Source: Somniosus microcephalus
Lineage: Eukaryota
Assembly (NCBI GenBank): GCA_052327205.1
Contig: CM126203.1
Location: 224,440,001-224,504,000 of the forward strand
Reading direction: 5' to 3'
DNA: 64,000 nucleotides
Both the position numbers and the translations under genes were made by a program. The notes below the pieces were generated by a model. It worked only from the letters and a program-made list of their open reading frames with translations. It was not told the origin of the DNA and ran no database searches. Shown here one piece after another: positions 5,339 through 49,108 of the stretch; position 1 is the first letter of the stretch; the number at the start of each line of letters is the position of its first letter.

Positions 5339-5603
5339 CCCCCACCCCCACCCCCTGCCTCTTGTTGATACTAATCCATTTAGTATCCAATATCTTGTTC
5401 CAATTGTTCTTTCATTGATTCCGCAGCTTGAATCATTTTCTAAATCAACTTGTGGATTGTGTGGACTTTGCAATTCTTCTGTGTGTGAATCATGACAAAA
5501 TAAAGGCTTATTTCTAAAAACATACCAAAGTACATAGATTAGCAATTACCGGTTGTATTTGGCATCATCACCCTTTTCCACATGCCTTAAAATGCATCAA
5601 TGA

Positions 5604-5915
5604 TTATTTTGCGGCATCATCCCTCATCTCTTTAACAACAGGTTCTCTGTTTAAATATGTGGCCCAGTACACTAAATTGAAAGTTCCAAATAAAACAGGG
5701 AACATTATCCTGGACATTCTGTCGATTTTGCTTACGCTGTTAAATGTTTTCTTGGCCTCCTGTGGTTTGGTCTCTGGTTTGGCCTCTTTTGGCTCTGCAG
5801 TTGCACTCTTTGCAATTGTTGGTAGTACTGAGTCCTTGGTGATATTAGGTGCATAATTTGCAACTGCCACTGCATAAGCATTATTTTTCTTCATGATAGA
5901 AGCCTTTTCTTTCTT
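5604..5915 (-). CDS. gabra2: GABA-A receptor alpha-2 subunit, last coding exon (intracellular loop end, TM4, stop)
   Basis: [24 protein letters not shown]...[38 protein letters not shown] matches GABRA2 ([14 protein letters not shown] is alpha-2-like). Acceptor tttactttcacAG at 5916-5917, phase 0, TAA stop at 5604. Confidence 0.95.
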
Positions 5916-12248: not shown

Positions 12249-14855
12249 TTATAAATTCAGTCTTTGGGGAGGCTTCCTGATTCTTTCTGGATAACGCCTT
12301 TCCCGAGTGTCTCGCTCTTGGTGCGGAGGCGATTCTAGCACCCTGTCGTCAGTTGATTCATCAGCTTCCAATGCTATTGTTTCTGAGGTAGATGCAACCT
12401 GTACGTCGGGTTCCTCACCAGGTACGTATGGCCGAGACATGGGGTTGACTCGTTCCTGTGACTCTAGGATCTGGTCAGCATGGCGTCTCACAATGTTCTC
12501 CCCAACATCCACTGTGTACATTAGTGGCCCCTGCCGTGTGCATATCGTTCCTGGTTGCCATTTCTCTGTTCGGTAGTCGCGGGCCAAGACTGGTTGTCCT
12601 ACATTGAAGCTCCTTGTTGGCTTCTCATTGATGTGTTGGAATTGCTTACTCTCAACATCTCTTCGTACATTTGGTCTGAGCAAATCCAGACAAGATCTCA
12701 ACCTTCGGTTAAAGAACATCATGGCCGGGGCCTGGTTGGTGACTGCATGTGTCGCATTTCTGTAGGCTAACAGGAAATTGTCCACCTTATGCTGCAGTGG
12801 AATGTCGTCATCGCACATGGCCTTTACTGCTTTTTTAAAGGTTGGTACGAACCTCTCAGCCAATCCATGTGTGGCTGGATGATACGGGGCGGATGTGTAA
12901 TGCCTTACCCCATTCCTTTTCATAAATCTTCGAAACTCTTCAGACACAAACTGTGGTCCGTTATCAGAGCAAATCTGCTCTGGCAAGCCGTTCCTGGCAA
13001 AAATGGTCCGTAGGACTGCAATAGTTTTCTCCGTGGTGGTGGAGGACATTTTGATCACCTCAGGCCATTTCGAGTGCGCATCCATGGCTATTAAAAACAT
13101 TGAGTCCATGAATGGACCAGCAAAATCAATATGCACCCGTTGCCATGGAGATGAGGGCCACTCCCATGGGTGTAGAGGGGCATGTGGTGGTGCATTTTGG
13201 ACCTTCTGGTTTTGTTGATCGATTCCCGGCCACCACACATAAGCCCTAGCAAGGCTTTTCATTTTCACTCCCCCCAGATGACCTTCATGTAGCTCATTTA
13301 GCACTCTCTCCCTTAACTTGGGTGGAATCACCACTCTGGATCCACACATCAAGGTCCCCTGGCATACTGACAGCTGTTCTCTTCTGGATGAGAATGCTGG
13401 CAACAGTGAGTCGCCATGTGCTGGCCATCCCTTCACCGTCAAATCATATACCCGAGACAGCGTCGGGTCATTTCGGGTCTCCTTCTCTACACCAGCGTTA
13501 GTTATTGGCAAGCATTCAATTATAGTCGAATGAAAAATTTCAACAGGATCCAGTGCTGGTGCTTCCTCCGCAGTAGGCAGTGGCAGGCGTGATAGCCCAT
13601 CAGCGTTTCCATGCTGTAACGTGCCCTTATACTCGATTTCATATTGGTGCGCCCCTAGAAAAAGGGACCATCTTTGTAGCCGTTGCGCAGTCATCACCGG
13701 AACGCCCTTCTTTGGATTAAAGATGGAGACAAGTGGTTGGTGGTCAGTCAGCAAGGTGAACTTCTGCCCGTGCAGATAGTGATTGGACTTTTTCACTCCC
13801 CACACTAGGCTGAGGGCCTCCCTGTCAATCTGGGTGTAGTTACGCTCGGCTGAGTTTAGTGACCGAGATGCAAAGGCTACTGGCCTCTCCGAGCCATCCG
13901 GGAATTTGTGCGACAGCACCGCTCCAATGCCATAGGGTGATGCATCACACGCCAACCGAATTGGTAGTGCTGGGTTGAAATGAGCCAACACCTCTTTTGA
14001 TGTGATCAATGCTTTGCTCTTCTGGAAAGCTCGTTTACATTCGTCACTCCACTTCCATGCTACCCCCGTTTGCAGTAGGGTGTTCAGTGGGTGTAGTACT
14101 GTAGACAAATTCGGCAAGAACTTATGGTAGTAGTTCACCAGCCCGAGGAACGACCTCAGTTGTGACACGTTTTCCGGTGCTGGAGCCTTGACTACTGCCT
14201 CAATCTTTTCAGGGGACTTATGTAACCCCTCTTTATCAATAACGTGGCCACAATACGAGATCTGCTTCTGGAAAAACTCGCATTTGGGACGATTAGCTCG
14301 GAGCCCATATTCCTTCAATCTAGTGAGCACCTGCTCCAGGTTGGCGAGGTGATCACTGTCATTTTCGCCCATGACCAGGATGCCTTCCAAATAACACTGG
14401 GTCCCTGGAATCCCTTGCAGGACTTGTTCCATTGCCCTTTGCCAAAAAGCCGGAGCTGATGCTACCCCGAACACCAGCCGGTTGTATTGGCAGAGACCTT
14501 TATGAGTATTGATCCTGAGGTACTGTTTCGAGGCTTCTTCTACCTCCATTTGCAGGTACGCCTGGGCCAGGTGAATCTTAGTGTAGCGTTTCCCTCCAGA
14601 TAGCGAGGCGAAAATATCTTCAATCCGCGGAAGCGGATATTGTACAGTGTGAAGGACTGGGTTCACTGTCACCTTAAAGTCCCCACAGATGCGAACCTTC
14701 TTTGGTTCCCCAGGCGTATTACTCAACGACCTCTTCATTACAGGAATGATGGGTGTAGCCCACTCGCTCCAGTCCACTTTGGACAGTACTCCTGAACGTT
14801 CCAAACCTTCCAGCTCTGCTTCGACGGCTGGGCGGATCGCATAAAACTTAAGCAT
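12249..14855 (-). pseudogene. Gypsy pol (RT, RNase H, integrase)
   Basis: WATPIIPV, RICGDFK, YNRLVFG, DASPYGIGAVL, integrase VHIDFAGP/SDNGPQF/GLAERFV. The RT YLDD motif reads YLEG and the integrase zinc-finger cysteines are deleted. Confidence 0.92.
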
Positions 14856-16166
14856 CTGGCCTTAATAAACTTTGGGCTTGCATTTTCCTCTATTTTGATC
14901 ATTGCTGTTATGCCTTTTAGTGTTCCGAGTCCCTGCTGGAATACTTCTTGTGCGTCAGTTAGCATTTTTGACAGTCGTCCAGGTGAGACGTCGTCATCCT
15001 TTTTGGCATCTACAGTCAGTGCTTGTATGGAATGCCAATCTAGCTGTATCTTCCGGATCCATTCACGTCCTAGTAGTGGTGGTCCTCCATCTGGCAATAC
15101 ATATAGGTCCATTTTTGGTGTTTCCTTGCCGTTATATATAACGTTCACCCTTATTTTTCCTTTGGGGTAGACTTTTTACCCCGTGTACGTCTTCAAGACA
15201 ATCTTTGTATCTCTCAAGTGAGAATAGCCGCTTGTAGTCCCTTCGGTTTATGACTGTTAGGGCTGATCCTGTGTCCAATTCCATTTTCACTTGGACTCCT
15301 GCTATCTTGAGCGTGACCCAGATAGTTTGGTGATCCTCCGTTTTGATCACATTATGTAGTTTCAGGCAACCCAGCTCCTTGCTTCCGGAGTCTGTATCAC
15401 TTATCTGTTCGTCTGAACTACTCTCCGTCACCTTATGTACCTTCTTGTACTTCTCCTGTGGAGATTTCTTGCTGCTGGTTTTCTTTCCCGACCTGCAGAC
15501 TCTTGCTATGTGACCTATTTTTCCACACTGTCTGCACACTTTGTCCTTGAACCAGCAATCATTATGGTCATGTGTTGTTCTGCCGCAGCGATAGCACGTC
15601 ACTGTTCCGTATGACATTTCATTTGTGCCATATTCTTGCGGTCTCCATTGTATCTCTGCAGCGCCCCATGCTGCTGCTTCGTGTGATACTGCAATGCTGA
15701 AAGCCTTGTCCAGCATAAGATCCTTTTCTGAAAGAAGCCGTTTCTGGGTTCCTTCACTTTGAAGCCCACACACAAACTTGTCCCTTAAAGTATCTGCTAG
15801 TCCCGTTCCAAACTGGCAGTGTTTCGATAGCTTGCACAGTTCCGTTAAATACTCAGCATTACTTTCGTCTTTATGCTGGTTCCTTTTGTGAAACTTGAAT
15901 CTTTCTGCTATCAGCAGCGGTGTGGGGTTTAAGTGGTCCTGTAGGATTGACACTATGCTTTCAAAATCCTTTTCTACTGGCTTCTCTGGGGTTACTAGGT
16001 TTCGTAGTAAGCCATACGTTTTTGCACCCATTGAATTCAACAATACCAGCGCTTTGTTGTCATCTGGCACTTCATTCGCCTTGCAGTATACTTCTATGCG
16101 TTCGACATATGTCGTCCAATCTTTGGCTTCATTGTCGAACGCTGTGATACTGCCACTCTTCGGCAT
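14856..16166 (-). pseudogene. Gypsy gag and aspartic protease (frameshifted)
   Basis: Two CCHC knuckles (CYRCGRTTHDHNDC, CRQCGKIGHIARVC) and protease ELDTGS. The frame shifts into ORF 14738-15148 (PLLGREW). Confidence 0.9.
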
Positions 16167-16189
16167 TTTTGGGTGTGGTTAGACTGGCT

Positions 16190-16610
16190 TAAAATGGCAT
16201 CTCCCGCGCTTTCCTTTCTTCCCCACTGCGGCTCAAAATGGCGTCTCCCGCGCTGCTGCCAACGCCGCTCTCGGCGGCCCTCGTGGCAAATGGCGACGCC
16301 CTGTGGGTTTCGTGCGCTGCTCCTGCGCTGCTGCCAATGCCGCTCTCTGCGGTCCTCGTGGCAATGGCAGCGCCTCGCGTTTTCCTGCGCGCCTCTCTCC
16401 CCCGTTGACGCTGCTCGGCCCTTGAACACCGGCTGCGCTCTGCGCGTATTCCTGCTCGCCTCTCTCCCCCGTTGACACTGCTCGGCCCTTGAACACCGGC
16501 TGCGCTCTGCTCTCTCTCATTTCTCTCCCCCGTTGACGCCGCTCGGTCCTGAACACCGGCTGCGCCCTGTGCGCTCTGCCCTCTCTCTCTCCCCTGTCAA
16601 CGCTGCTTGG
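16190..16610. repeat. GC-rich internal tandem repeats in the Gypsy 5' leader
   Basis: About three ~60-70 bp units containing cgttgac..gctcggcccttgaacaccggctgcgc, plus repeated (a)aaatggcg / gcgctgctgccaa units. Confidence 0.75.
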
Positions 16611-16891
16611 CTTTTTTCTGTGCCGCCCGGTCGGCTCTAGCCGCCGCTGTCCGGGAAGGGTCTGCGCAGTACCTGTTGCCAGCCCGTTTCGCTGGACCAC
16701 CGTGACTGGAAAGCCAAGCCTGGCGCTCGACAGCCTCCCCTGCGATGCTCAAATCTCTGCTGGATGACTGGGCGGTTGCCCGTGGTCGACGCCCGTGCTT
16801 CTGGACTCGACCTCCTTCCACTGTTCTCCAGGAGCGAATCCCTGGGAGGTGATGCAGAGTTGCAGGTAGGTTCGAATCTGCCCATCGCCAA

Positions 16892-17105
16892 TGTTATGTC
16901 CGTGTATCTTGATGTTGTGTCCTTCAATAATTAGACAACAAGACTGCAGGGAACGATTCAACAGGTGTTTACTGAATGAGGGTTACTCTAGAACTAACTG
17001 TACAGATCACTACTCAGGGTTTATATACAGGTGTGGTCACTGCCGGTACTACAGTATACAGGAGCTGTAAAAGTAGTTCTCTCCCTTAAAGGTACATACA
17101 TTACA
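16892..17105 (-). repeat. 5' LTR (214 bp)
   Basis: Direct repeat of 11929-12139, followed on the minus strand by tTGGCGA (PBS). Confidence 0.95.
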
Positions 17106-17979: not shown

Positions 17980-18513
<534 letters not shown>

Positions 18514-30200: not shown

Positions 30201-31620
30201 CACGCTCTGGTTTTTAATTCCCCCACTGCTACCTTGCTCTATTGCCTTCTCTGCTGACATTTTTATTTTTTGCTCTCTTGAAACCTCCCCCCCCACTAAT
30301 TAGTTTAAAGCCCTCTCTACAGCCCTAGTTATTCGATTCACCAGGATCCTAGTCCCAGCACTGGCCAAGTGAAGTCCGTCCCAACGGAACAGCTCTCTCC
30401 TGTCCCAGTACTGGTGCCAGTGTCCTAAGAAGCAAAACCCATTTCTCCCACACCAGTCTTTGAGCCACGCATTTAACTCTCTGATTTTATTTACCCTAGC
30501 CAAATTTGCTCATGGCTCAGGTAGTAATGCAGAGATTATTACCCTTGTGGTACTGCTTTTTAATTTGGCCCCTAGCTGCTCATACTCCCTCAGCAGAACC
30601 TCTTTCCTTGTCCTATCTATGTCGTTGGTACCAACATGGACCAGGACAACTGGATCCTCCCACTCCAAGTTTCTCTCCAGTCCAGAGGAGATGTCCTTAA
30701 CCCTGGCACCGGGCAGGCAACACAGCCTTCGGGACTCTCGCTCTCGGCTGCAAAGAACCCTATCTATTCCCCTAATGCTACTATCCCCTACCACTACAAC
30801 ATTTCATTTTACTCCCCCCACTTGAATGGCCCCTCGTTCCACGGTGCTGCGGCCAGGTTGCTCATCCTCCCTGCAGTCCCTGTTCCCGTCCTCACAAGGA
30901 GTAAGAGCCTCGAACCTGTTGGACAAGAGCAGGGCTGCGGCTCCTCCAACACTACCTCCTGGATCCCCGTACCTGCCTCACTCATAGTCACACCCTCCTG
31001 TCCCTGACCACGGACTACATCTGAATTAGTTAATCTAATTGGTGTGACTACTGCCTGGAACACAGAGTCCAGGTAACTCTCCCCCTCCCTGATGTGTCGC
31101 AGTGCTTGAAGCTCGGACTCCAGCTCATTAACACGGAGCCAGAGTTCCTCGAGCAGCCAGCACTTACTGCAAATGTGATCACTGTGAACATCAATGGTGT
31201 CCACCAGCTCCCACATATTGCAGCAGTAACACATCACCTGCTCTCCCATTCTATGTAATTAATTAAATTTATTGTTATTATTTTTAAATACCCTCTGCCT
31301 CTATTCTAGATGATGAATATCACACCTCTATTTAATTGAACTTACCAACTTATAAAGGTTTAAAAGGGAAGGAAAAGTACTCACCAACCAGCCAATTACC
31401 TACCAGCTTGGCTGTGATGTCACTTTTGAATTCTGGCCTCCCCTTGGAATGTTGCCTGTGGAGCCTGTTTAGGCTGCCTCACCTCGCTGCTCTGGCTCGA
31501 CTCAACACCCGCTGCTGCTCCCAGCTGCCTCGACTGGGCCTCGCCTCTCTGCTCCTCCTCCGCGATGTCTGCTAATCCTGAGGCCAAACTCTCACGGCAC
31601 TCTCTGCTACTCGCACTCAG
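27219..31620 (-). mobile_element. Near full-length CR1 LINE (defective), same sense as gabra2
   Basis: ORF1 with zinc finger (CYCC...HICSKC) and SGNH esterase (VGDSSIRG, CCLPGA, HVGTND, DGLH). ORF2 endonuclease (YLNARSI, AITETW) and RT in frameshifted pieces. Tail at 27219. Confidence 0.93.
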
Positions 31621-33310
31621 TTTTTTAAATTCTTTCATGGGATGTGGGCATTACTGGCAAAGCCAGCATTTATTGCCCATCCTGAAGATCCCTTGAGAAA
31701 GTGGTGGTGAGCCGCCTTCTTGAACCGCTGCAGTCCGTGTTGTGAAAGGCTGTTAGGGAGGGAGTTCCAGGATTTTTGACCCAGTGATGATGAAAGAACG
31801 GCAATATATTTCCAAGTCAGGATGGTGTGTGACTTGGAAGGGAACTTAGAGGTGGAGGTGTTCCCATATGCTTGCTGCCCTTGTCCTTCTAGATGATAGA
31901 GGTCGCGGGTTTGGGAGGTGCTGTTGAAGAAGTCTTGGCGAGTTGCTGCAGTGCATCTTGTAGATGGTACACACTGCAGCCACACGTTGCACTGGTGGTG
32001 GAAGGAGTGAATTTTTAAGGTGGTGGATGGGGTGTCAATCAAGAGGGCTGCTTTGTTGTTGAGTTTCTTAAGTGTAGTTGGAGCTGCACTCATCCAAATA
32101 AGTGGAGAGTATTTCATCACACTCTTGACTTGTGCATTGTAGGTAGTGGAAAGGCTTTGGGGAGTCAGGGGATGAGACACTCGCCGCAGAATACCCAGGC
32201 CTAGAAATTGAGTGCCCTTAGCGCCGATTTTGCGGCGCTAGAGGGCCTAGCGCTGCAATTGGCGCCGGCGCCGAAATTGCCTGGGACCCTTCCGCCGCGG
32301 TAGACCGGTAGCGCTGCGCCGGCACCGATGACGTCATCGGTGTGCGCAGCGTCCCGGTTGCCATGCCGACGGGCCCCAGCGCCGAAATTCAGTTGCGGCC
32401 GCCTCGCCCGTGGCAGCCGCAACTAAGACTCTGGCAACAGAGTCTTACAAGTCTTTGCGCCGGCGCATTAAAGGCCCCGCGGCGGCCGGCCGCTTTCCCG
32501 CCGGCCGCCTGGCCGCAGCTCCCTCCCCGGACTTCCCCCCACCCCCCCCCCCGGAACAGAAGCAAGCCCGGCACTTGTCCGAGGTGCCGGGCTCATTTTT
32601 AAAAAGATTTTCGCGGGCCGCGGCCGGGTGCAGGCAGCTCCTCCTTAAGGGAAGGAGGAGGCCTGCACTTCCCGAGCCTGCCGCACCGCATCGGGTGCCG
32701 CAGCGCCGGAATTGCGGCGCGAAACGGCAGTTAGCGCCGATTTACCGCCGCAAAGACCCTTCAGTAGCGCCGGCAGCCGTTTGGGCGCGGCCCTGCTGAA
32801 TTTTTGGCGCGCGCAGGGGGACTTAGCGCCGGCACTAACTTCCGGCGCTAAAGCCCTGGCTAAGCCAAAACTCAATTTCTAGGCCCCAGCCTCTGACCTA
32901 CTCCTGTAGCCACAGTATTTATGTGGCTGGTCCAGTTAAGTTTCTGGTCAATGGTGACCCCCAGGATGTTGATGGTGAGGGATTTGGCGATGGTAATTCT
33001 GTTGAATGTCAAGGGGCAGTGGTTAGACTCTCTCTTGTTGGAGCTAGACATTGCCTGGCACTTGTGTGGCATGAATGTTAACTGTCACTTATCAGCCCAA
33101 GCCGGAACGTTGTCCAGGTCTTGCTGCATGCAAGCATGGACTGCTTCATTATCCGAGGAAGTGCAAATGTAACTGGACACTGTGTAATCATCAGCGAACA
33201 TCCGCACTACTGACCTTATGATGGAGGGAAGGTTATTGATGAAGCAGCGGAAGATGGTTGGGCCTCGGACACTGCCCTGAGGAACACCTGCAGCAATGTC
33301 CTGTGGTTTA
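31621..33310 (-). mobile_element. 3' part of a different CR1/L2-group LINE, split by a MITE
   Basis: ILGVTIDQKLNWTSHIN and YNAQVKSVMKYSPLIWMSAAPTTL, WNSLP, A-rich tail at 31621. Confidence 0.75.
32198..32885. mobile_element. GC/CpG-rich MITE
   Basis: TIR ggcctagaaattgag / ctcaatttctaggcc with 3-bp TSD CCA. The host LINE rejoins across it. Paralogue at 61948-62645. Confidence 0.9.
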
Positions 33311-38956: not shown

Positions 38957-39150
38957 TTAGGTTTCTGGAGTTTGGAGGTCATTTCTGCAACCTCAGAAGC
39001 CACTCTCACCACATTGCTACTCACTATCACAACATTGAGGGATTGTCCCTCTGATTGCTACTTGACCTGCCATCTACTACATCAGCATTGTTGCCACTTA
39101 TACTGTCTCACCTTGGACCTCAGAATCGGACCAAGATGAGCACCACCATC

Positions 39151-40238
39151 AACCGGCGCAAGCACCGAGGCCGGACCAGTTCCAGGGAGCAGCGAGGCGA
39201 GGAGCCCGGTATAAAAACCGGCGCGAGCACCGAGGCCCGACCAGTTCCAGGGAGCAGTGAGGCGAGGAGCCCGGTATAAAAACCGGCGCGAGCACCGAGG
39301 CCCGACCAGTTCCGGGGAGCAGCGAGGCGAGGAGCCCGGTATAAAAACCGGCGCGAGCACCGAGGCCCGACCAGTTCCGGGGACCAGCGAGGCGAGGAGC
39401 CCGGTATAAAAACCGGCGCGAGCACCGAGGCCCGACCAGTTCCGGGGACCAGCGAGGCGAGGAGCCCGGTATAAAAACCGGCGCGAGCACCGAGGCCCGA
39501 CCAGTTCCGGGGACCAGCGAGGCGAGGAGCCCGGTATAAAAACCGGCGCGAGCACTGAGGCCCGACCAGTTCCGGGGAGCAGCGAGGCGAGGAGCCCGGT
39601 ATAAAAACCGGCGCGAGCACCGAGGCCCGACCAGTTCCGGGGAGCAGCGAGGCGAGGAGCCCGGTATAAAAACCGGTGCGAGCACCGAGGCCCGACCAGT
39701 TCCGGGGAGCAGCGAGGCGAGGAGCCCGGTATAAAAACCGGCGCGAGCACCGAGGCCCGACCAGTTCCGGGGAGCAGCGAGGCGAGGAGCCCGGTATAAA
39801 AACCGGCGCGAGCACCGAGGCCCGACCAGTTCCGGGGAGCAGCGAGGCGAGGAGCCCGGTATAAAAACCGGCGCGAGCACCGAGGCCCGACCAGTTCCAG
39901 GGAGCAGCGAGGCGAGGAGCCCGGTATAAAAACCGGCGCGAGCACCAAGGCCCGACCAGTTCCAGGGAGCAGCGAGGCGAGGAGCCCGGTATAAAAACCG
40001 GCGCGAGCACCGAGGCCCGACCAGTTCCAGGGAGTAGCGAGGCGAGGAGCCCGGTATAAAAACCGGCGCGAGCACCGAGGCCCGACCAGTTCCAGGGAGC
40101 AGTGAGGCGAGGAGCCCGGTATAAAAACCGGCGCGAGCACCGAGGCCCGACCAGTTCCAGGGAGCAGTGAGGCGAGGAGCCCGGTATAAAAACCGACGCG
40201 AGCACCGAGGCCCGACCAGTTCCAGGGAGCAGCGAGGC
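39151..40238 (+). repeat. 65-bp tandem array (~16.7 copies) forming the 5' end of a CR1
   Basis: Unit ccagttcc(a/g)gggagcagcgaggcgaggagcccggtataaaaaccggcgcgagcaccgaggcccga recurs every 65 nt (39176, 39241, 39306 ... 40216). Confidence 0.97.
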
Positions 40239-40473
40239 ATACCAACTCAGCAGCGGGGAGAGAGGTAAAAAGTAATCAGAGTGTGACATCACCAGGGAGC
40301 AGGTAAGTGATTGGTTGGTGAGTATTTCTCTTTTTTAAACTTTAACTCTGTGGTTTATAGTTGCTAAGGTCTTTTCTGGTTTAGCGGGGACTGTTGGTAA
40401 ACCATACAAGCGCCTTAGAGTTTATCTTTAATTGGTGATAGTGAATTAATTTAAATTAATTAAAGGGTAAGTC

Positions 40474-41418
40474 ATGTCAGGACAGTCCATCCCCGTGTTA
40501 TGCTCCTCTTGCTCTATGTGGGAATTCAGGGACGCTGCCTGTGTCCCTGATGACCATGTGTGCCAGAAATGCATCCAGCTGCAGCTACTAGCAGACCGCA
40601 TTGCGGCACTGGAGCTGCGGATGGATGGGCTTTGAAGTATTCACGATGCTGAGAGGGTCGTGGATAACACGTTTAGTGAGGTGGTCACACCGCAGGTAAG
40701 GGCTGCACAGGCAGAAGGGAAATGGGTGACCATCAGGCAGAGCAGTAGAGGCAGGCAGGTAGTGCAGGGGACCCCTGTGGCCATCCCCCTCTCAAACAGG
40801 TATACGGATCTGGATACTGTTGAGGGGGATGACTTACCAGAGGAAGGCAGCAGCAGCCAACTTCCTGGCACCAGGGGTGCTTCTGCTGCTCGGGAAGGGA
40901 GGAAAAAGAGTGGGAGAGCAATAGTGGTAGGGGATTCTATCGTAAGGGGAACAGATAGGCGTTTCTGTGGCCATAGACGTGACTCCAGGATGGTTTGTTG
41001 CCTCCCTGGTGCCAGGGTCAAGGATGTCACTGAACGGCTGCAGGGAATTCTGAAGGGGGAGGGTGAACAGTCAGAGGTCGTGGTTCACATTGGGACCAAT
41101 GACATGGGTAGGAAGAGGGATGAAGTCCTGCAGCAAGAATTTAGGGAGCTAGGTAGCAGATTAAAGAGCAGGACCTCAAAGGTTGTAATCTCTGGATTAC
41201 TCCCGGTGCCACGTGCTAGTGAGTATAGGAATAGGAGGATAGAGCAGATGAATGCGTGGCCAAAGAGTTGGTGCAGGAGGGAGGGCTTTAGTTTCCTGGA
41301 TCACTGGGCCTGCTTCTGGGGAAGGTGGGACTTGTACAAGTCAGACGGGTTGCACCTGAACCAGAGTGGGACAAATATCCTTGTGGGGAGGTTTGCTAGC
41401 ACTGTTCAGGGGGTTTAA
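40474..41418 (+). pseudogene. CR1 ORF1 (zinc finger/leucine zipper and SGNH esterase), one internal stop
   Basis: MSGQSIPVLCSSC...HVCQKC, TGA at ~40633, then VVGDSIVRG, CCLPGARV, HIGTND, SDGLH. Confidence 0.88.
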
Positions 41419-41421
41419 ACT

Positions 41422-44407
41422 AAAATGGCAAGGGGTTGGGAACCTGAGCAGGGAGACAGAGGAAAGGGAAACAGGGATAAAAGCAAAAGATAGGAAGGGG
41501 AAAAACAAAAGTGGCAGTCAGAGAAATCAACCGTTTAAATCAAACGTGGCCACAGTAAATAATAATTCGAATAAGTCTAAGGGCGTTAAAAAAACAAGCC
41601 TGAAGGCTTTGTGTCTTAATGCGAGGAGCATTTGTAATAAGGTGGACGAATTGGCTGCGCAAATAGAGGTAAACGAATATGACTTGGTTGGGATTACGGA
41701 AACGTGGCTCAAGGATGGCCAAGACTGGGAACTCAACATCCAGAGGTATTCGATATTCAGGAAAGATAGGCAAAAAGGAAAAGGAGGTGGGGTAGCATTA
41801 CTGGTTAAAGAAGGGATTAATACAATTGTAATGAAGGATATTAGCTCTGATGATGTGGAATCTGTATGGGTAGAATTGAGAAATACTAAGGGGAAAAAAA
41901 CTTTAGTGGGAGTGGTATATAGACCTCCCAACAGTAAGGCGGAGGTAGGGGATGGCATGAAAAGGGAAATTAAAGAAGCGTGCAATAAGGGCACAGCAGT
42001 CATCATGGGTGACTTTAATCTACATATAGATTGGGTCAAACAAATTAGTAACAATACTGTGGAGGAGGAATTCCTGGAGTGTTTACGTGATGGTTTCCTG
42101 GACCAATATGTCGAGGAACCAACCAGAGATCAGGCCATCTTAGACTGGGTATTATGTAACGAGAAAGGATTAATTAGCAATCTTGTTGTACGAGGCCCCT
42201 TGGGTCGGAGTGATCATAATATGATTGAATTCTTCATTAAGATGGAGAATGAAGTAGTTGACTCAGAGACAAGGGTCCTCAATTTAAATAAAGGAAACTA
42301 CGATGGTCTGAGGAGCGAGTTGGGTAGGATTGATTGGGGAATGGCACTCAAAGGGTTGACGGTGGATAGGCAATGGCAAACATTCAAAGACCGAATGGAT
42401 GAGCTACAGAATTTGTTCATCCCAGTTTGGCATAAAAATAAAACAAAAAAGGTGACTCAACCGTGGCTAACAAGAGAAATTAGGGATAGCATAAGATCCA
42501 AGGAGACGACATATAAATTGGCCAGAAAAAGCAATAATCCTGAGGATTGGGAGCAGTTTAGGATTCAACAAAGGAGGACAAAGGGATTAATTAAGAAAGG
42601 GAAAATAGAATATTAGAGTAAGCTAGCAGGGAACATAAAAACTGACTGTAAAAGCTTTTATAGATATGTGAAGAGAAAAAGATTGGTGAAGTCAAGCGTA
42701 GGTCCCTTGCAGTCAGAATCAGGGGAATTTATAATGGGAAACAAAGAAATGGCGGACCAACTAAATTCATACTTTGGTTCTGTCTTCACAAAGGAGGACA
42801 CAAATAACCGCCCAGAGATGTCGGGGAACATAGGGTCTGATGAAAGGGTGGAACTGAAAGAAATCAGTATTTGTAGGGAAATGGTGTTAGGAAAATTGAT
42901 GGGACTGAAGGCCGATAAATCCCCAGGGCCTGATAATCTACATTCCAGGGTACTTAAGGAAGTGGCCCTAGAAATAGTAGATGCATTGCTGGTCATCTTT
43001 CAGAACTCGATAGACTCTGGAACAGTACCCATGGATTGGAGGGTAGCTAATGTTACCCCACTATTCAAAAAAGGTGGTAGAGAAAAAGTGGGGAATTATA
43101 GACCGGTAAGCCTGACATCGGTTGTGGGGAAAATGCTAGAGTCTATTATAAAAGATGTAATAGCAGAGCACTTGGAAAGCAGTGACAGGATCGGACAAAG
43201 TCAACATGGATTTACAAAAGGTAAATCATGCTTGACTAATCTACTGGAATTTTTTGAGGATGTAACTGGTAAAATAGATAAGGGAGAACCAGTGGATGTG
43301 GTGTATTTGGACTTTCAGAAGGCTTTCGATAAGGTCCCACATAAGAGATTAGCGTGCAAAATTAAGGCACATGGGATTGGGGGCAAGGTATTGACTTGGA
43401 TAGAGAACTGGTTGGCGGACAGAAAGCAAAGAGTTGGAATAAACGGGTCATTTTCCGAGTGGCAGGCAGTGACTAGTGGGGTACCGCAAGGATCGGTCCT
43501 AGGAACCCAGCTGTTCACAATATATATTAATGATCTGGACGAGGGAATTGGATCTAATATCTCCAAATTTGCAGACGACACAAAGCTGGGTGGGAGGGTA
43601 AGCTGTGAGGAGGATGTCGTGAAACTCCAGTACGATTTGGACAGGTTGGGTGATTGGGCAGAAACATGACAAATGCACTATAATGTGGATAAATGTTAGG
43701 TTATCCACTTTGGTGGCAAAAACAGGAAGGCAGATTATTATTTGAATGGCAATAGATTGGGAGAAGGGGAAGTGCAAAGAGACCTGGGTGTCCTTGTGCA
43801 CCAGTCGCTGAAGGTAAGCATGCAGGTGTAGCAGGCGGTTATGAAGGCAAATGGTATTTTGGCCTTCGTAGCAAGAGGGTTTGAGTACAGGAACAAGGAT
43901 GTCTTGCTACAGTTGTACAGGGCCTTGGTGAGACCGCACCTTGAGTATTGTGTGCAGTTTTGGTCGCCTTATCTGAGGAAGGACGTTCTTGCCATGGAAG
44001 GAGTGCAGCGAAGATTCACCAGGCTGATACCTGGGATGGCAGGAATGACGTATGAGGAGAGATTGTGTTGATTAGGCTTATACTCACTGGAGTTTAGAAG
44101 ATTGAGAGGGGATCTCATCAAAACCTATAAAATTCTGTCAGGCCTGGACAGACTAGATGCAGGAAGGATGTTTCTGATGGCCGGGGAGTCCAGAACCAGG
44201 GGTCATAGTCTAAGGATAAGGGGTAAGCCATTTAGGACTGAAATGAGGAGGAATTTCTTCACCCAGAGAGTGGTGAACCTGTGGAATTCTCTGCCACAGA
44301 GGGCGGTGGAGGCCAGTTCATTAAATATATTCAAGAAAGAGTTGGATATATTTCTTAAGGCTAAAGGGATCAAGGGATATGGGGAGAAGGCAGGGACAGG
44401 GTACTGA
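41422..44407 (+). pseudogene. CR1 ORF2 (APE endonuclease and RT) with nonsense mutations
   Basis: [52 protein letters not shown]. Start is approximate. Confidence 0.9.
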
Positions 44408-44706
44408 ATTTGGATGATCAGCCATGATCTCATTGAATGGCGGAGCAGGCTCAAAGGGCCGAATGGCCTACTCCTGCTCCTCTCTTCCATGTTTCTATGT
44501 AACAACACCAGCCACACCAGCAGCCTTCTCCTCAATGACATGATGGGCCACAAAAAAGAGGGGGGCTCCACAGGACTGCAACGCACCGGAGGCAATACTC
44601 GCAACACAACGTATAGAGGCAGAGGATGAGCTTCCTCAACATGATTTCAGGTGGCTCAGGCTATCATGCCTGGTCATCGTAGACATTTCTAGCTTGCTGT
44701 AACAAG

Positions 44707-44865
44707 AGATATATTTCTTAAGGCTAAAGGTATCAAGGGATATGGGGAGAAAGCAGGGACAGGGTACTGAATTTGGATGATCAGCCATGATCCCATTAAA
44801 TGGCGGAGCAGGCTCGAGGGGCCGAATGGCCTACTCCTGCGCCTATCTTCTATGTTTCTATGTTT
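44707..44865 (+). mobile_element. Short CR1 3' tail insertion
   Basis: Nearly identical to 44345-44500. Confidence 0.85.
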
Positions 44866-45025
44866 CTAAGACCTGCTGTCCAGCGGTCTGGTGGACACTC
44901 CTTGCCAGTGGCTGTGAAAGTCACCACCGCCCTCAACTTCTTCGCCTCAGGCTCCTTCCAGGGATCTGCAGTAGACATTTGCGGGATCTCCCAGTCGGCT
45001 GCACACAAATGCATCACACAGGTCA

Positions 45026-46758
45026 ATACATACTTTGGTTCTGTCTTCACAAAGGAAGTCACAAATAACCTCCCAGAGATGTCGGGGAACATAGCGTCTA
45101 ATGAGAGGGAGGAACTGAAAGAAATCAGTATTTGTAGGGAAATGGTGATCGGGAGTTTGACGGGATTGAAGGCCGATAAATCCCCAGGGCCTGATAATCT
45201 ACATCCTAGGGTACTTAAGGAAGTGGCCCTAGAAATAGTAGATGCATTGCTGGTCATCTTCCAAAATTCTATAGACTCTGGAACAGTACCCATGGATTGG
45301 AGGGTAGCTAATGTTACCCCACTATTCAAAAAAGGTGGTAGAGAAAAAATGGGGAATTATAGACTGGTAAGCCTGACATTGGTAGTGGGGAAAATGCTAG
45401 AGTCCATTATAAAAGATGTAATAGCAGAGCACTTGGAAAACAGTGACAGGATCAGACAAAGTCAACATGGATTAACAAAAGGTAAATCGTGCTTGACTAA
45501 TCTACTGGAATTTTTTGAGGATGTAACTGGTAAAATAGATAAGGGAGAACCAGTGGATGTGGTGTATTTGGAATCAGAAGGTTTTCGATAAAGTCCCGCA
45601 TAAGAGATTAGCGTGTAAAGTTAAGGCACATGGGATTGGGGGCAAGCTATTGACTTGGATAGAGAACTGGTTGGCGGACAGGAAGCAAAGAGTTGGAATA
45701 AATGGGTCTTTTTCCGAGTGGCAGGCAGTGGCTAGTGGGGTACCGCAGGGATCAGTGCTCGGACCCCAGCTATTCACAATATATATTAATGATCTAGACG
45801 AGGGAACTAGATGTAATATCTCCAAGTTTGCAGATGACACAAAGCTAGGTGGGCGTGTGTGCTGTGAGGAGGATGCCGAGAAACTCCAGTATGATTTGGA
45901 CAGGTTGGGTGATTGGGCAGATGTGTGGCAGATGCAGTATAATGTGGATAAAGGCGAGGTTATCCATTTTGGTGGCAAAAACAGGAAGGCAGATTATTAT
46001 CTGAATGGCAATAGATTGGGAGAAGGGGAAGTGCAACGAGACCTGGGTGTCCTTGTGCACCAGTCGCTGAAGGTAAGCACGCAGCTGCAGCAGGTGGTTA
46101 AGAAGGCAAATGGTATGTTGGCCTTCGTAGCGAGAGGGTTCGAGTACAGGAACAAGGATGTCTTGCTGCAGTTGTACAGGGCCTTGGTGAGGCCACATCT
46201 TGAGTATTGTGTGTAGTTTTGGTCGTCTTATCTGAGGAAGGATGTTCTTGCCATGGAGGGAGTGCAGCAAAGATTCACCAGACAGATACCTGGGATGGCA
46301 GGAATGACATATGAGGAGAGATTGGGTCAATTGGGCTTATACTCGCTGGAACCTAGAAGAATGAGAGGGGATCTCATTGAAACTTAGAAAATTCTAACAG
46401 GACTAGACAGGCTAAATGCAGGTAGGATGTTCCCGATGGCCGGGGAGTCCAGAACCAGGTGTCACAGTCTAAGGATAAGGGGTAAGCCATTTAGGACAGA
46501 GATGAGGAGGAATTTCTTCACCCAGAGAGTAGTGAAGCTGTGGAATTCTCTAGCACAGAAGGCAGTTGAGGCCAATTCATTAAATATATTCAAGAAGGAG
46601 TTAGATATATTTCTTAAGGCTAAAGGGATCAAGGGATATGGGGAGAAGGCAGGGACAGAGTACTGAATTTGGATGATCAGCCATGATCTCAGTGAATGCC
46701 GGAGCAGGCTCGAGGGGCCGAATGGCCTACTCCTGCTCCTATCTTCTATGTTTCTATG
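45026..46758 (+). mobile_element. 5'-truncated CR1 insertion
   Basis: RT motifs and tail. Flanked by (g)tca, and the transposase continues on both sides. Confidence 0.9.
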
Positions 46759-47819
46759 TCACCGATGGCAAGTTTCATAAATCAGCCAATTATATCAACT
46801 TTGTCACTGATGAAGCCAGTGTTAGTGAGCGGCTTTGCAGCTGTGGCTGATTTCCCACATGTGCAGGGCATCATCGACTGCACGCATGTGACCATGAAAG
46901 CGCCCCAGCTTCACCCAGGAGGTTTTGTGAACTGCAAGGGCTTCCACTCCCTCAATGTGCAGCTCATCTACAACCATAAAAAGATGATTATGCATGTGTG
47001 CGCCAGATGCCCTGGCAGCTGTCATAACTCTTTTGTGCTGCACCAGTCCACCTTCCCTGAGCTCTTCGCACCTCCAGACAAACTTACCGGCTGGCTGTTT
47101 GGAGACAAGGGCTATCCATTGAAGGTGTGGCTCATGACACCCTTTGAGGAGGCCAAGTAATGAGGCTGAGGAGCGTGTCCACCAGATGTGTCATAGAGTA
47201 ATAGACATGCAGAAGCGCTTCAGATGCCTTGACAGATCTGGAAGAGAACTTCAATATGCACCAGCCAGGGTTTCCTGAATCATCGTTGTCTGCTGCGCGC
47301 CGCACAACATAGTGCAGCAGCGAGGATTGGAGCTGCAGGAAGATCATGGCACACAGCACACAGCTTCTTCAAAGGAGGAGGAGGAAGAGCAGGTGGAAAA
47401 TGAGGAGGAGAAATCTGAGGTGGAGATGCCACCAGCAGCGGCGCACTTTGCTGCCCAGGAAGACCGGGATGGCCTCATTATGGCCACATTAACTTAACTT
47501 GATCCAATGCAGCCACATGCCTGCCACTTGCTGTACTAATTCCCCCCACCTGCTCCCTCCCCTCCTCCAACAACACCATAAAGCATCCCTACAATTACCA
47601 AGCCATTGCTCTCACCCAAAGGCCCAATGTTGGAGGTTAAATAATGTGCCACCACTCAGTCCAAGTGACAAAGTCACTTCCAAGGTTTGAGGCAAAAGTG
47701 GAAAAGACCAGAAAGTGGTGCAAAGAAAAACATTCCAGTGTCCAATCAAAACAACTGAAACCTAGCACTAACATTTGTTGATACACCCACGTGCTTACCC
47801 TTGTGACTCTACTTTTGTG

Positions 47820-49108
47820 TCATTTTTTGTTTGCGAGTGCTTCTACGAGGGGTAACCCCTGTGGCTTCAGCAGAGGTAGTTTCAGGCTGCTCACTTCCCT
47901 GCTGCGACTGGTTAGCCACTTTTGGTGGACATCCTGTGGGTTTTGGAGCCTGTGAGGGCTCCGCCAAAGACTGCTCCTCCTGCTACTGTGCAGGGGCAGA
48001 CTCAGCCATCGCGATCTGAGGAGGCATCTGGGGCTCTGACTGAGAGGGTGGCAACGGGGAAGAAGTGAAAGTGCTTTGAGAAGAGCCCCCACTTCCATGT
48101 CCCCTCTCACCATCATCCCTCTCATGGGCCACCTGAACTTTCCTGCGAGCAAGGAGCTGAAGAACACCTTGCTGCACAGCAGTGGGATGATGAACGCCCA
48201 AGTCAATGTTTACATCCCTCCTTGAGAGGAGGTCTATGAGCATCAGCAATCTTTTGTCCATAGCTAGCATGTGCTCGCGTGAGTGGTGCATTTGCTGCTC
48301 CATGCAGGTGGCCATCCTTTCCATGGAAGAGCACATTGTTGCCATCCCCTGTGACATGGTGGTGCTCATGTTGGATATGGACTCCTCTATTCTCTGAATA
48401 TTTGCAGACATCGTGGCTGCAAAAGATGCCAGAGCCTCATGCAATTGTTGCTGCCCCTCCAAGATCTCCCTGTTTCTCGATGACCCCCAAGGTTCAGGGT
48501 CTCCCTGTTGTTGTGGGCTTTCTTCTCCTGCAAGGAGGGAAAGAGAAGTTTGAGTGAGAGTGATGAAATCAGTGTAAGGAATGGATGGGTTACATCTGTA
48601 GAAGGTGATTATGAGGGAGTGGGGTGCCATTGCCAAATGGCCTCCTTCTGTGGTGTTACTTGCTATGATTGCATTAGGATGAGGGCGAGTGTGAGGGGTG
48701 GTTAGTCAGTTGGGGATGTGAGTAGGGAAATAGACAGAGAGGGACGGGTGGATGTGCAAGGTAGGTTGGAGTGAGGAATGATGTGCAGGAGTAGGCTTGG
48801 GAAGGCTTAGTGATGGGGATGTGTTGACAGGCACTTCAGGATGAGGATGAGTGTGGCATTGCACTCACCTTTCCTGACCCCATGAGATCATTCAAGCGCT
48901 TCCTGTACTGTATCTAGGCCCTCCTGACCACATCCCTGCTGCTGACCTCCTCAGTAATATCCAGCCAGGCTGTCTTTGTTGCTTGTGGAGGTCTCCTTTG
49001 CCTGTCAGGAGGGAAGATGACCTCCCTGCGTGCTCTGACAACCTCCACAAGAGTATGCAAGGAAGAATCTGAGAACCGGGGTGCAGCCCTCTGCCTTTGG
49101 CTATCCAT
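47820..49108 (-). pseudogene. Harbinger Myb/SANT-like DNA-binding protein gene, two exons
   Basis: Exon 1 (49108-48869) MDSQRQRAAPRFSDSSL...AWLDI..., donor AAG|gtgagt, acceptor ccttgcag| at 48528, exon 2 begins EKKAHNNRE. Confidence 0.8.

Follow-up and report, generated by a model that had tools for sequence, protein, structure and literature searches.

The 64,000-nt stretch of the Somniosus microcephalus genome analysed here (the window) contains a CR1 LINE that carries an array of 65-bp tandem units at its 5' end; of the other CR1 copies in the window, a single one extends to its own 5' end. The features concerned are, in forward-strand coordinates:

39058..39150, forward strand: left flank, where an interrupted Harbinger-type transposase region begins; it resumes at 44504-44707, 44871-45024 and 46760-47160 (DDE_Tnp_4)
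39151..39153, forward strand: left target-site duplication AAC, which is also unit sequence (microhomology)
39151..40238, forward strand: CR1 5' monomer array, 16.7 units of 65 bp; the element proper begins at 39151-39154
39210..39217, forward strand: first TATAAAAA box; 16 boxes, every 65 nt up to 40185-40192, each with 5-bp inverted arms
39241..39247, forward strand: first initiator (Inr) match with a TATA upstream; its A is at 39243, 33 nt past the T at 39210, and it recurs every 65 nt
40239..40473, forward strand: non-repeated 5' UTR (the tether), 235 nt, opening with a weak monomer-like stretch
40283..40325, forward strand: conserved block, with a CRE-like palindrome at 40283-92, 5' splice-site words with GT at 40303 and 40318, and a reversed CCAAT at 40310-14
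40474..41418, forward strand: ORF1, with an N-terminal CxxC/coiled region and an SGNH/GDSL esterase domain; premature stop at 40633
41426..44407, forward strand: ORF2, with an APE endonuclease and a reverse transcriptase; premature stops at 42614, 43667, 43697, 43829 and 44069
44408..44500, forward strand: 3' UTR, ending in a short TTTCTATG-type tail common to sibling copies
44501..44503, forward strand: right target-site duplication AAC
31438..31555, reverse strand: 5' end of a second, older CR1, with two degenerate monomer cores 62 nt apart and no TATA, then a CRE/splice-donor block

In Pfam, ORF2 matches Exo_endo_phos (3.7e-14) and RVT_1 (2.4e-27), and ORF1 matches Lipase_GDSL_2 (5.1e-15), with elasmobranch relatives at 55-70%. 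ORF1 is 68-70% identical to Pristiophorus proteins, and its best named relatives are shark and ray proteins. A prokaryotic genome collection contained no match to the monomer pattern and returned five loci, all bacterial SGNH hydrolases at 23-27%. The 3' microsatellite tail is not followed by poly(A), and the region from 39151 to 40473 is free of ATG. Judged by its domains, its tail and its likeness by eye to published consensuses, the array-bearing element is a canonical CR1. Among the protein matches (P0008, P0026, P0077, P0078) were a shark-type CR1 ORF1 filed under Pseudomonas aeruginosa on a 4.2-kb contig, a likely contamination, and ray gene models named as RPS24 and TMEM204 isoforms that contain CR1 ORF1.

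The initial annotation had placed the array inside the insertion, and the boundaries bear this out. Because AAC is duplicated at 39151-53 and 44501-03, and because both flanks have related counterparts without the interruption near 8.5 kb and 51.5 kb, the array lies within the CR1 insertion; the same two observations exclude a repeat that was already present in the flank. The duplication is 3 bp long for the array-bearing CR1 and 3-4 bp long in two sibling insertions. The annotation's 'full-length' is harder to maintain, since the duplicated AAC is also unit sequence and such microhomology at the 5' junction is typical of truncated 5' ends; the 5' end of this copy may be truncated. It begins 24-27 nt upstream of an Inr, a start point that, given the microhomology, says little about where transcription starts. 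Two truncated siblings interrupt the Harbinger-type region alongside this element; the transposon (39058-47160, forward strand) has received three insertions from a single CR1 family within some 500 bp of transposon sequence. A possible partner ORF of the transposon lies at 47983-48705 on the reverse strand, and related copies are found near 8.5, 34.7 and 51.5 kb.

Repeat analysis of 39151-40238 gave a period of 65, 16.7 copies, 98% matches and no indels, as expected from the annotated repeat directly upstream of the CR1 UTR and ORF1. TATAAAAA occurs 16 times between 39210 and 40185, with exactly 65 nt in each of the 15 gaps, and 16 copies satisfy the TATAWAWR consensus. The small inverted repeat said to surround the TATA can be seen directly, ATAAAA being enclosed by the 5-bp arms CCGGT and ACCGG; the right arm of the last box carries a single change, at 40196. 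The annotated Inr spacing was confirmed as well: CCAGTTC fits YYANWYY, and its A lies 33 nt after the first T of the TATA. The distance from a TATA to the start site is usually 28-34 nt, with an optimum of 30-31, which puts the unit at the long end of the usual range, and the stricter BBCABW consensus is missed at one position. The 65-nt unit has only four T, and all four lie inside the TATA or the Inr. Mononucleotide shuffling of the unit produced TATAWAWR in 32 of 400,000 trials and never a TATA together with an Inr. When the TATA was kept in place, 0.48% of shuffles acquired an Inr at 28-34 nt and 1.0% acquired perfect 5-bp arms (200,000 shuffles in each case). These figures describe the non-randomness of the motif arrangement, not function, and concern motifs picked post hoc, after the sequence had been seen. 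CpG richness likewise holds, with an observed/expected ratio of 1.09 in the array versus 0.40 in the UTR and body and 0.45 in the window.

The element is dead, with six premature stops (one in ORF1, five in ORF2) and no frameshift. Compared with three siblings over 1547 aligned columns it has 58 private changes; the 54 in ORF2 comprise 31 synonymous changes, 20 nonsynonymous changes and 3 stops. The body has changed since insertion by 1.1-1.9% according to the codon partition, or by about 4% (CI 1.3-10%) according to the stop count (n=6). The array differs from its majority unit at 21 positions, seven of them singletons, so the annotated 'barely decayed' stands as a description, although this state probably reflects homogenisation after insertion. 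Non-CpG singletons number 2 versus 7-12 expected (P 0.03-0.0005), and the non-singleton variants run in neighbouring units (4-6; 1-2 and 12-17; 15-16). The units were probably homogenised or multiplied at this site once the element had inserted, and 17 is therefore not the inherited number of units; assembly polishing could be an alternative source of the homogeneity. Since the element is dead at this locus, its 17 units most likely go back to a shorter inherited array that expanded, or was homogenised, neutrally in place.

Could the unit itself be no more than a neutral GC-rich minisatellite, grown at this locus only from a single non-functional UTR segment? The copy is dead, its array looks younger than its body, and 17 units exceed the 2-6 visible in published consensuses (first 400 nt of each). 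Consensuses collapse arrays, however, and hence set no bound on copy number, and a local minisatellite would account for the number 17, not for the unit. Further evidence against it comes from the 14 shark consensuses with tandem 5' units, from the homologous units of three shark species and from the two degenerate cores of the second CR1 in the window, and we regard it as improbable.

That second CR1 spans 27237 to about 31620 on the reverse strand, and its ORF1 DNA is 67% alike to that of the array-bearing element. When 1250 tiles of the window were compared with the unit, the best match outside the array was the 5' end of this CR1, with a score of 45 versus 37.5 for the next (1/2000 shuffles). 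The following tiles (37.5 and 33) are GC-rich repeats of an LTR element, and the 37.5 match is probably due to composition. The LTR element is Gypsy-like (12249-17100, reverse strand), has gag and pol frames, and contains a GC-rich tandem repeat of 60-67 bp at 16376-16611, between the LTR and gag. A decayed TATA in the second CR1 was considered and dropped; its 5' end resembles SquAca_CR1-6a, which is without a TATA there.

The second CR1 also has, at 31385-31423 on the reverse strand, a block with a CRE-like palindrome, splice-donor words and a reversed CCAAT-like word. None of 2000 shuffles aligned as well as this block does to the tether block of the array-bearing CR1. The monomer-like stretch that opens the tether is a borderline match, since 102 of 2000 shuffles scored equally well, and it is given no weight here. 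The CRE/CCAAT/splice-donor block is common to the second CR1 and many shark CR1 consensuses, and across shark CR1 families it is conserved more strongly than the monomers. This block, which the initial annotation passed over, lies downstream of the monomers and could carry much of the promoter. The retained donor words suggest U1 binding or unspliced templates. A third splice-donor word lies at 40467, 7 nt ahead of the ORF1 ATG, with a possible acceptor at about 40384.

Published CR1 and L2 consensuses were compared by eye and counted by hand over the first 400 nt of each entry in Supplement Table 2 of PMC13343379. The rows comprised 24 dogfish, 24 white-shark and 23 catshark CR1 (71 in total), 18 stingray CR1 and scattered others. 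About 36 of the 71 shark rows could be scored; the rows dropped begin in or just before the ORFs. Clear tandem 5' units of 30-290 nt were present in 14 of these ~36 rows, with three more doubtful, and the CRE/CCAAT block in about 15. Among these 14, a canonical TATA is found in two (ScyCan_CR1-19 and -11b) and a non-canonical TA-rich core in four (SquAca_CR1-15b, -7 and -9, ScyCan_CR1-6), and eight are without a TA-rich core (CarCar_CR1-2, -4, -5, -7a, -16 and -23, ScyCan_CR1-7a and -7b). The monomer core word gave no match in the supplement, and the exact 65-bp unit is absent from the readable 400 nt of the consensuses.

By eye, the UTR and ORFs of the array-bearing element are nearest to dogfish consensuses: its tether is nearly identical to those of SquAca_CR1-15a/b, and its UTR-ORF1 junction is nearest to SquAca_CR1-11. 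SquAca_CR1-15b combines the almost identical tether with a homologous unit from which the TA dinucleotide is absent. In SquAca_CR1-7 the SquAca_CR1-15b unit sits on a different tether, again with no canonical TATA, a pairing that points to an exchange of promoters or monomer types between CR1 lineages. The catshark consensus ScyCan_CR1-19 has a homologous 80-nt unit, with TATAAAAA inside 6-bp inverted arms whose sequence differs and with an Inr match at +35 nt, and begins 13 nt upstream of its own Inr. CarCar_CR1-14 has TATA and Inr words in common with the 65-bp unit. An Inr-like YAGT lies 32 nt past the TA-rich core in RhiTyp_CR1-11, CalMil_L2-1 and CalMil_L2-2, and the spacing is off in HypSab_CR1-12 (26), RhiTyp_CR1-2a (41) and ScyCan_CR1-11b (none clear). 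TATA words, partly searched for, were seen in 5' UTR consensuses from shark, ray, chimaera, tortoise, alligator, emu, frog and halosaur. On these sequence comparisons, tandem 5' structure is general in shark CR1, with the TATA as one monomer type, and the unit is part of the CR1 5' end at the level of family and clade, not a local accident.

Other 5' ends among these rows carry other words. Those of catshark ScyCan_CR1-7a and -7b have monomers of what we take to be an octamer and CCAAT, and stingray HypSab_CR1-1, -5, -6a, -9, -12, -15, -17 and -18 have combinations of what are presumably a GC box, an NRF1-like word, a CRE and a TA-rich core. In ScyCan_CR1-6, -11a, -16 and -19, CarCar_CR1-14 and RhiTyp_CR1-2a and -11, a splice-donor word and its complement form, by eye, inverted arms around the TA-rich core; in such relatives the arm-borne donor could be sequestered in a hairpin.

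As a proxy for the start site, 5' ends were placed relative to the TA-rich core wherever a consensus opens with bases that return in the following unit, by the reasoning applied to mouse L1 in PMC6454616. The 13 scorable CR1/L2 rows gave offsets of 22, 27, 29, 30, 31, 32, 33, 34, 41, 44, 60, 79 and 104 nt. Ten of the 13 fall 22-44 nt downstream of the core (2.8 expected, P 1e-5), in a window that was set post hoc, from counts made by hand and from consensus ends that depend on their authors' extension and trimming; three consensuses (60, 79 and 104 nt) lie outside. With four related monomers dropped, 7 of 9 were in register (P 1e-4). A window of 25-36 held 7 of 13 (P 1e-4), and a window of 10-50 gave P 0.003-0.005. 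Three of the 13 rows are not cartilaginous-fish CR1 (two L2 and one tortoise), and GopEvg_CR1-4, AldAff_L2-1 and HypSab_CR1-12 had also surfaced in TATA-word searches. The count covers rows with a repeated start, and more than ten rows with a TATA-like word had none. These data are suggestive of a tendency for consensus 5' ends to sit a short way past the TA-rich core; the array-bearing copy's own 5' end does not fit the register.

The unit might instead act in RNA, as a row of short hairpins with A-rich loops that would serve ORF1p loading, RNA stability or, in relatives, control of U1 binding. The arm hairpin is indeed present in all MFE and centroid folds, the arms of ScyCan_CR1-19 differ in sequence yet pair, and one arm is a splice-donor word in several relatives (by eye, in the same 400-nt consensus starts). 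However, a three-unit RNA folded no better than its shuffles (z -0.37; 77/200), an Rfam scan gave no matches, the arms of the 65-bp unit are not splice-donor words, and the Inr and the 5'-end register would be left unexplained. We consider a function in RNA very unlikely, a shade more so than a local minisatellite. A coding role for the antisense open frames across the array was rejected, the T-poor unit providing no stop on that strand. Used as a protein query for other copies, the antisense frame matched none of 3993 candidates; in a representative protein library it gave four matches, all of them unrelated repeats or chance, the best being another repeat with a 65-residue period. A tblastn comparison of 105 proteins with the end of the array and the UTRs yielded just noise among the matches listed.

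Taken together, these results are consistent with the array being the CR1 family's own promoter repeat, built like the mouse L1 promoter from monomers and a tether, with a TATA-Inr core in each monomer. That it is a 5' regulatory repeat of the family is very probable. That the TATA-Inr pair sets the transcription start is somewhat more likely than not. For the whole reading, in which the monomers are TATA-Inr core promoters backed by a conserved tether and units are lost with each transcript and restored by array dynamics, we estimate a probability of roughly 0.55. TBP/TFIID bound to a TATA would place the Pol II start about 30-33 nt further on, at the Inr of the following unit or close to it; the CRE/CCAAT and U1-binding words beyond the array would assist, and an unmethylated CpG-rich array would stay open. 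The RNA would be without the TATA used and all that lies upstream of it, so that a daughter copy would have at least one TATA fewer and would be transcribable while at least two units remain. Units would be regained in DNA by slippage, unequal exchange or conversion, a step that is partly shown here, since neighbouring units share variants and have fewer private changes than the body.

The initial annotation had already suggested an upstream-type promoter carried in tandem, and that proposal stands in part. The unit belongs to the CR1 5' end, a TATA with an Inr at 32-35 nt recurs in cartilaginous-fish CR1/L2, 5' ends follow the core, and the array turns over in place. Against the proposal, the TATA is lacking in 8 of the 14 shark arrays and non-canonical in 4, the nearest dogfish homologues are without a canonical TATA, and the copy starts 24-27 nt before the Inr. 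In a different division of labour, the units would be CpG-rich promoter or enhancer modules with dispersed starts, as in mouse L1, the tether would set the start and the basal activity, and the TATA would be an AT-rich spacer that the element could do without. Apart from the TATA-less arrays and dogfish units just named, this view can point to the tether block, whose conservation no monomer approaches (2000 of 2000 shuffles beaten; ~15 of ~36 shark rows), and to monomer types that appear to swap between CR1 lineages, as promoters do in the L1 elements treated in the consulted part of PMC5381506. Yet all four T of the unit fall in a TATA and an Inr at a fitting distance, other families repeat the TATA-Inr pair at 32-35 nt, the ends of the consensuses follow the TA-rich core, and mouse L1 tethers are just weakly active according to the portion of PMC9022269 at hand. 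Modules without a functional TATA therefore appear unlikely to us, though clearly less so than a minisatellite or a role in RNA.

Core promoters in tandem monomers, our preferred reading, would have their closest parallel in mouse L1. There, transcription starts inside the monomers, where 5' ends cluster, arrays reach up to 50 units by unequal crossing-over, and losing and regaining monomers is an existing working model (PMC6454616); two monomers outperform one (PMC9022269), and L1 promoters are without TATA boxes (PMC7778262), as far as these sources were available. The available portion of PMC11602158 contained nothing on TATA. Mouse L1Md A/Tf/Gf and shark CR1 alike have CpG-rich tandem monomers and a tether ahead of ORF1, and in L1Md monomer number varies, the start lies within the array and monomer duplication maintains the promoter (PMC6454616, PMC9022269, PMC5381506). 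L1Md belongs to the L1 clade, has units of about 200 bp and starts near YY1 or AP-1 sites with no TATA (PMC7778262), whereas the shark array belongs to the CR1 clade and has a 65-bp unit with a canonical TATA and an Inr match. At most, the shark array would work like an L1Md monomer promoter; it is not a member of the L1Md type.

Repeated or neighbouring copies supply a promoter that would otherwise be left behind in Dictyostelium TRE5-A (A-modules), Drosophila HeT-A and Penelope (pseudo-LTRs) also; these belong to other clades and use internal modules or whole-element tandems, not short TATA-Inr monomers. Stuart et al. 2026 (PMC13343379) describe repeating subunits in CR1-group elements, tandem near the 5' UTR and of species-specific sequence. 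As described in the accessible text and in the preprint of the paper, these occur in ORF1-less elements only, as 1-5 units of 100-500 bp, whereas the shark array consists of 65-bp units in an ORF1-bearing CR1; the word 'promoter' does not occur in that main text, and the survey, recent and vertebrate-wide, is in this portion silent on CR1 promoters. Its supplement itself contains tandem arrays in ORF1-bearing shark CR1s, without comment. Also close are the elasmobranch CR1s with an esterase ORF1 (SquAca_CR1-11, -15a/b and -7; ScyCan_CR1-19; CarCar_CR1-14), the unit being homologous by eye to those of ScyCan_CR1-19 and SquAca_CR1-15b; unlike the 65-bp unit, the dogfish homologues have no canonical TATA in the 400 nt compared. 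Tandem promoter monomers are thus already known from mouse L1, and their TATA-Inr version in CR1 appears to be new: our literature search turned up no account of monomers of this kind in either CR1 or L2, though earlier studies of the CR1/L2 5' UTRs of chicken, turtle and zebrafish, or Repbase reports, may already mention tandem units or TATA words.

In sharks and rays, CR1-group elements account for 22-34% of the genome (PMC13343379, in part). Functional TATA-Inr monomers would break, for a major vertebrate LINE group, the rule that LINEs use internal promoters without a TATA, a rule based largely on mammalian L1, and every insertion would add a row of core promoters to the genome. The loss and regain of monomer arrays, left unresolved in mouse in what we consulted of PMC6454616, would also gain a system with a sharply defined start, in which the loss per cycle could be read from 5' ends. 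More tentatively, and with less than even confidence, we propose a widespread class of vertebrate CR1/L2 elements with upstream-type Pol II promoters (TATA and Inr, often with GC or CCAAT boxes) in place of internal, TATA-less ones, carried as tandem 5' monomers, consumed from the front and regrown by array expansion; if so, monomer number would count down a lineage's remaining generations. The TATA words noted above in consensuses from shark to halosaur, some of them located by a directed search, would fit such a class. Should the TATA prove incidental, the array would still carry the monomer design of mouse L1 over to ORF1-bearing shark CR1, which has gone unremarked.

Two further observations concern the surroundings. 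The last two exons of what we take, from sequence motifs, to be a GABA-A receptor alpha-type gene lie at about 18050-18250 and at 5600-5900 on the reverse strand; earlier exons were not found in the window, and the CR1 is therefore probably located either in antisense orientation within a very long intron or upstream of the two exons. At 32200-32880 on the reverse strand, a GC-rich and CpG-rich insertion with long inverted ends lies in a LINE fragment upstream of the second CR1, and related GC-rich sequence occurs near 62 kb.
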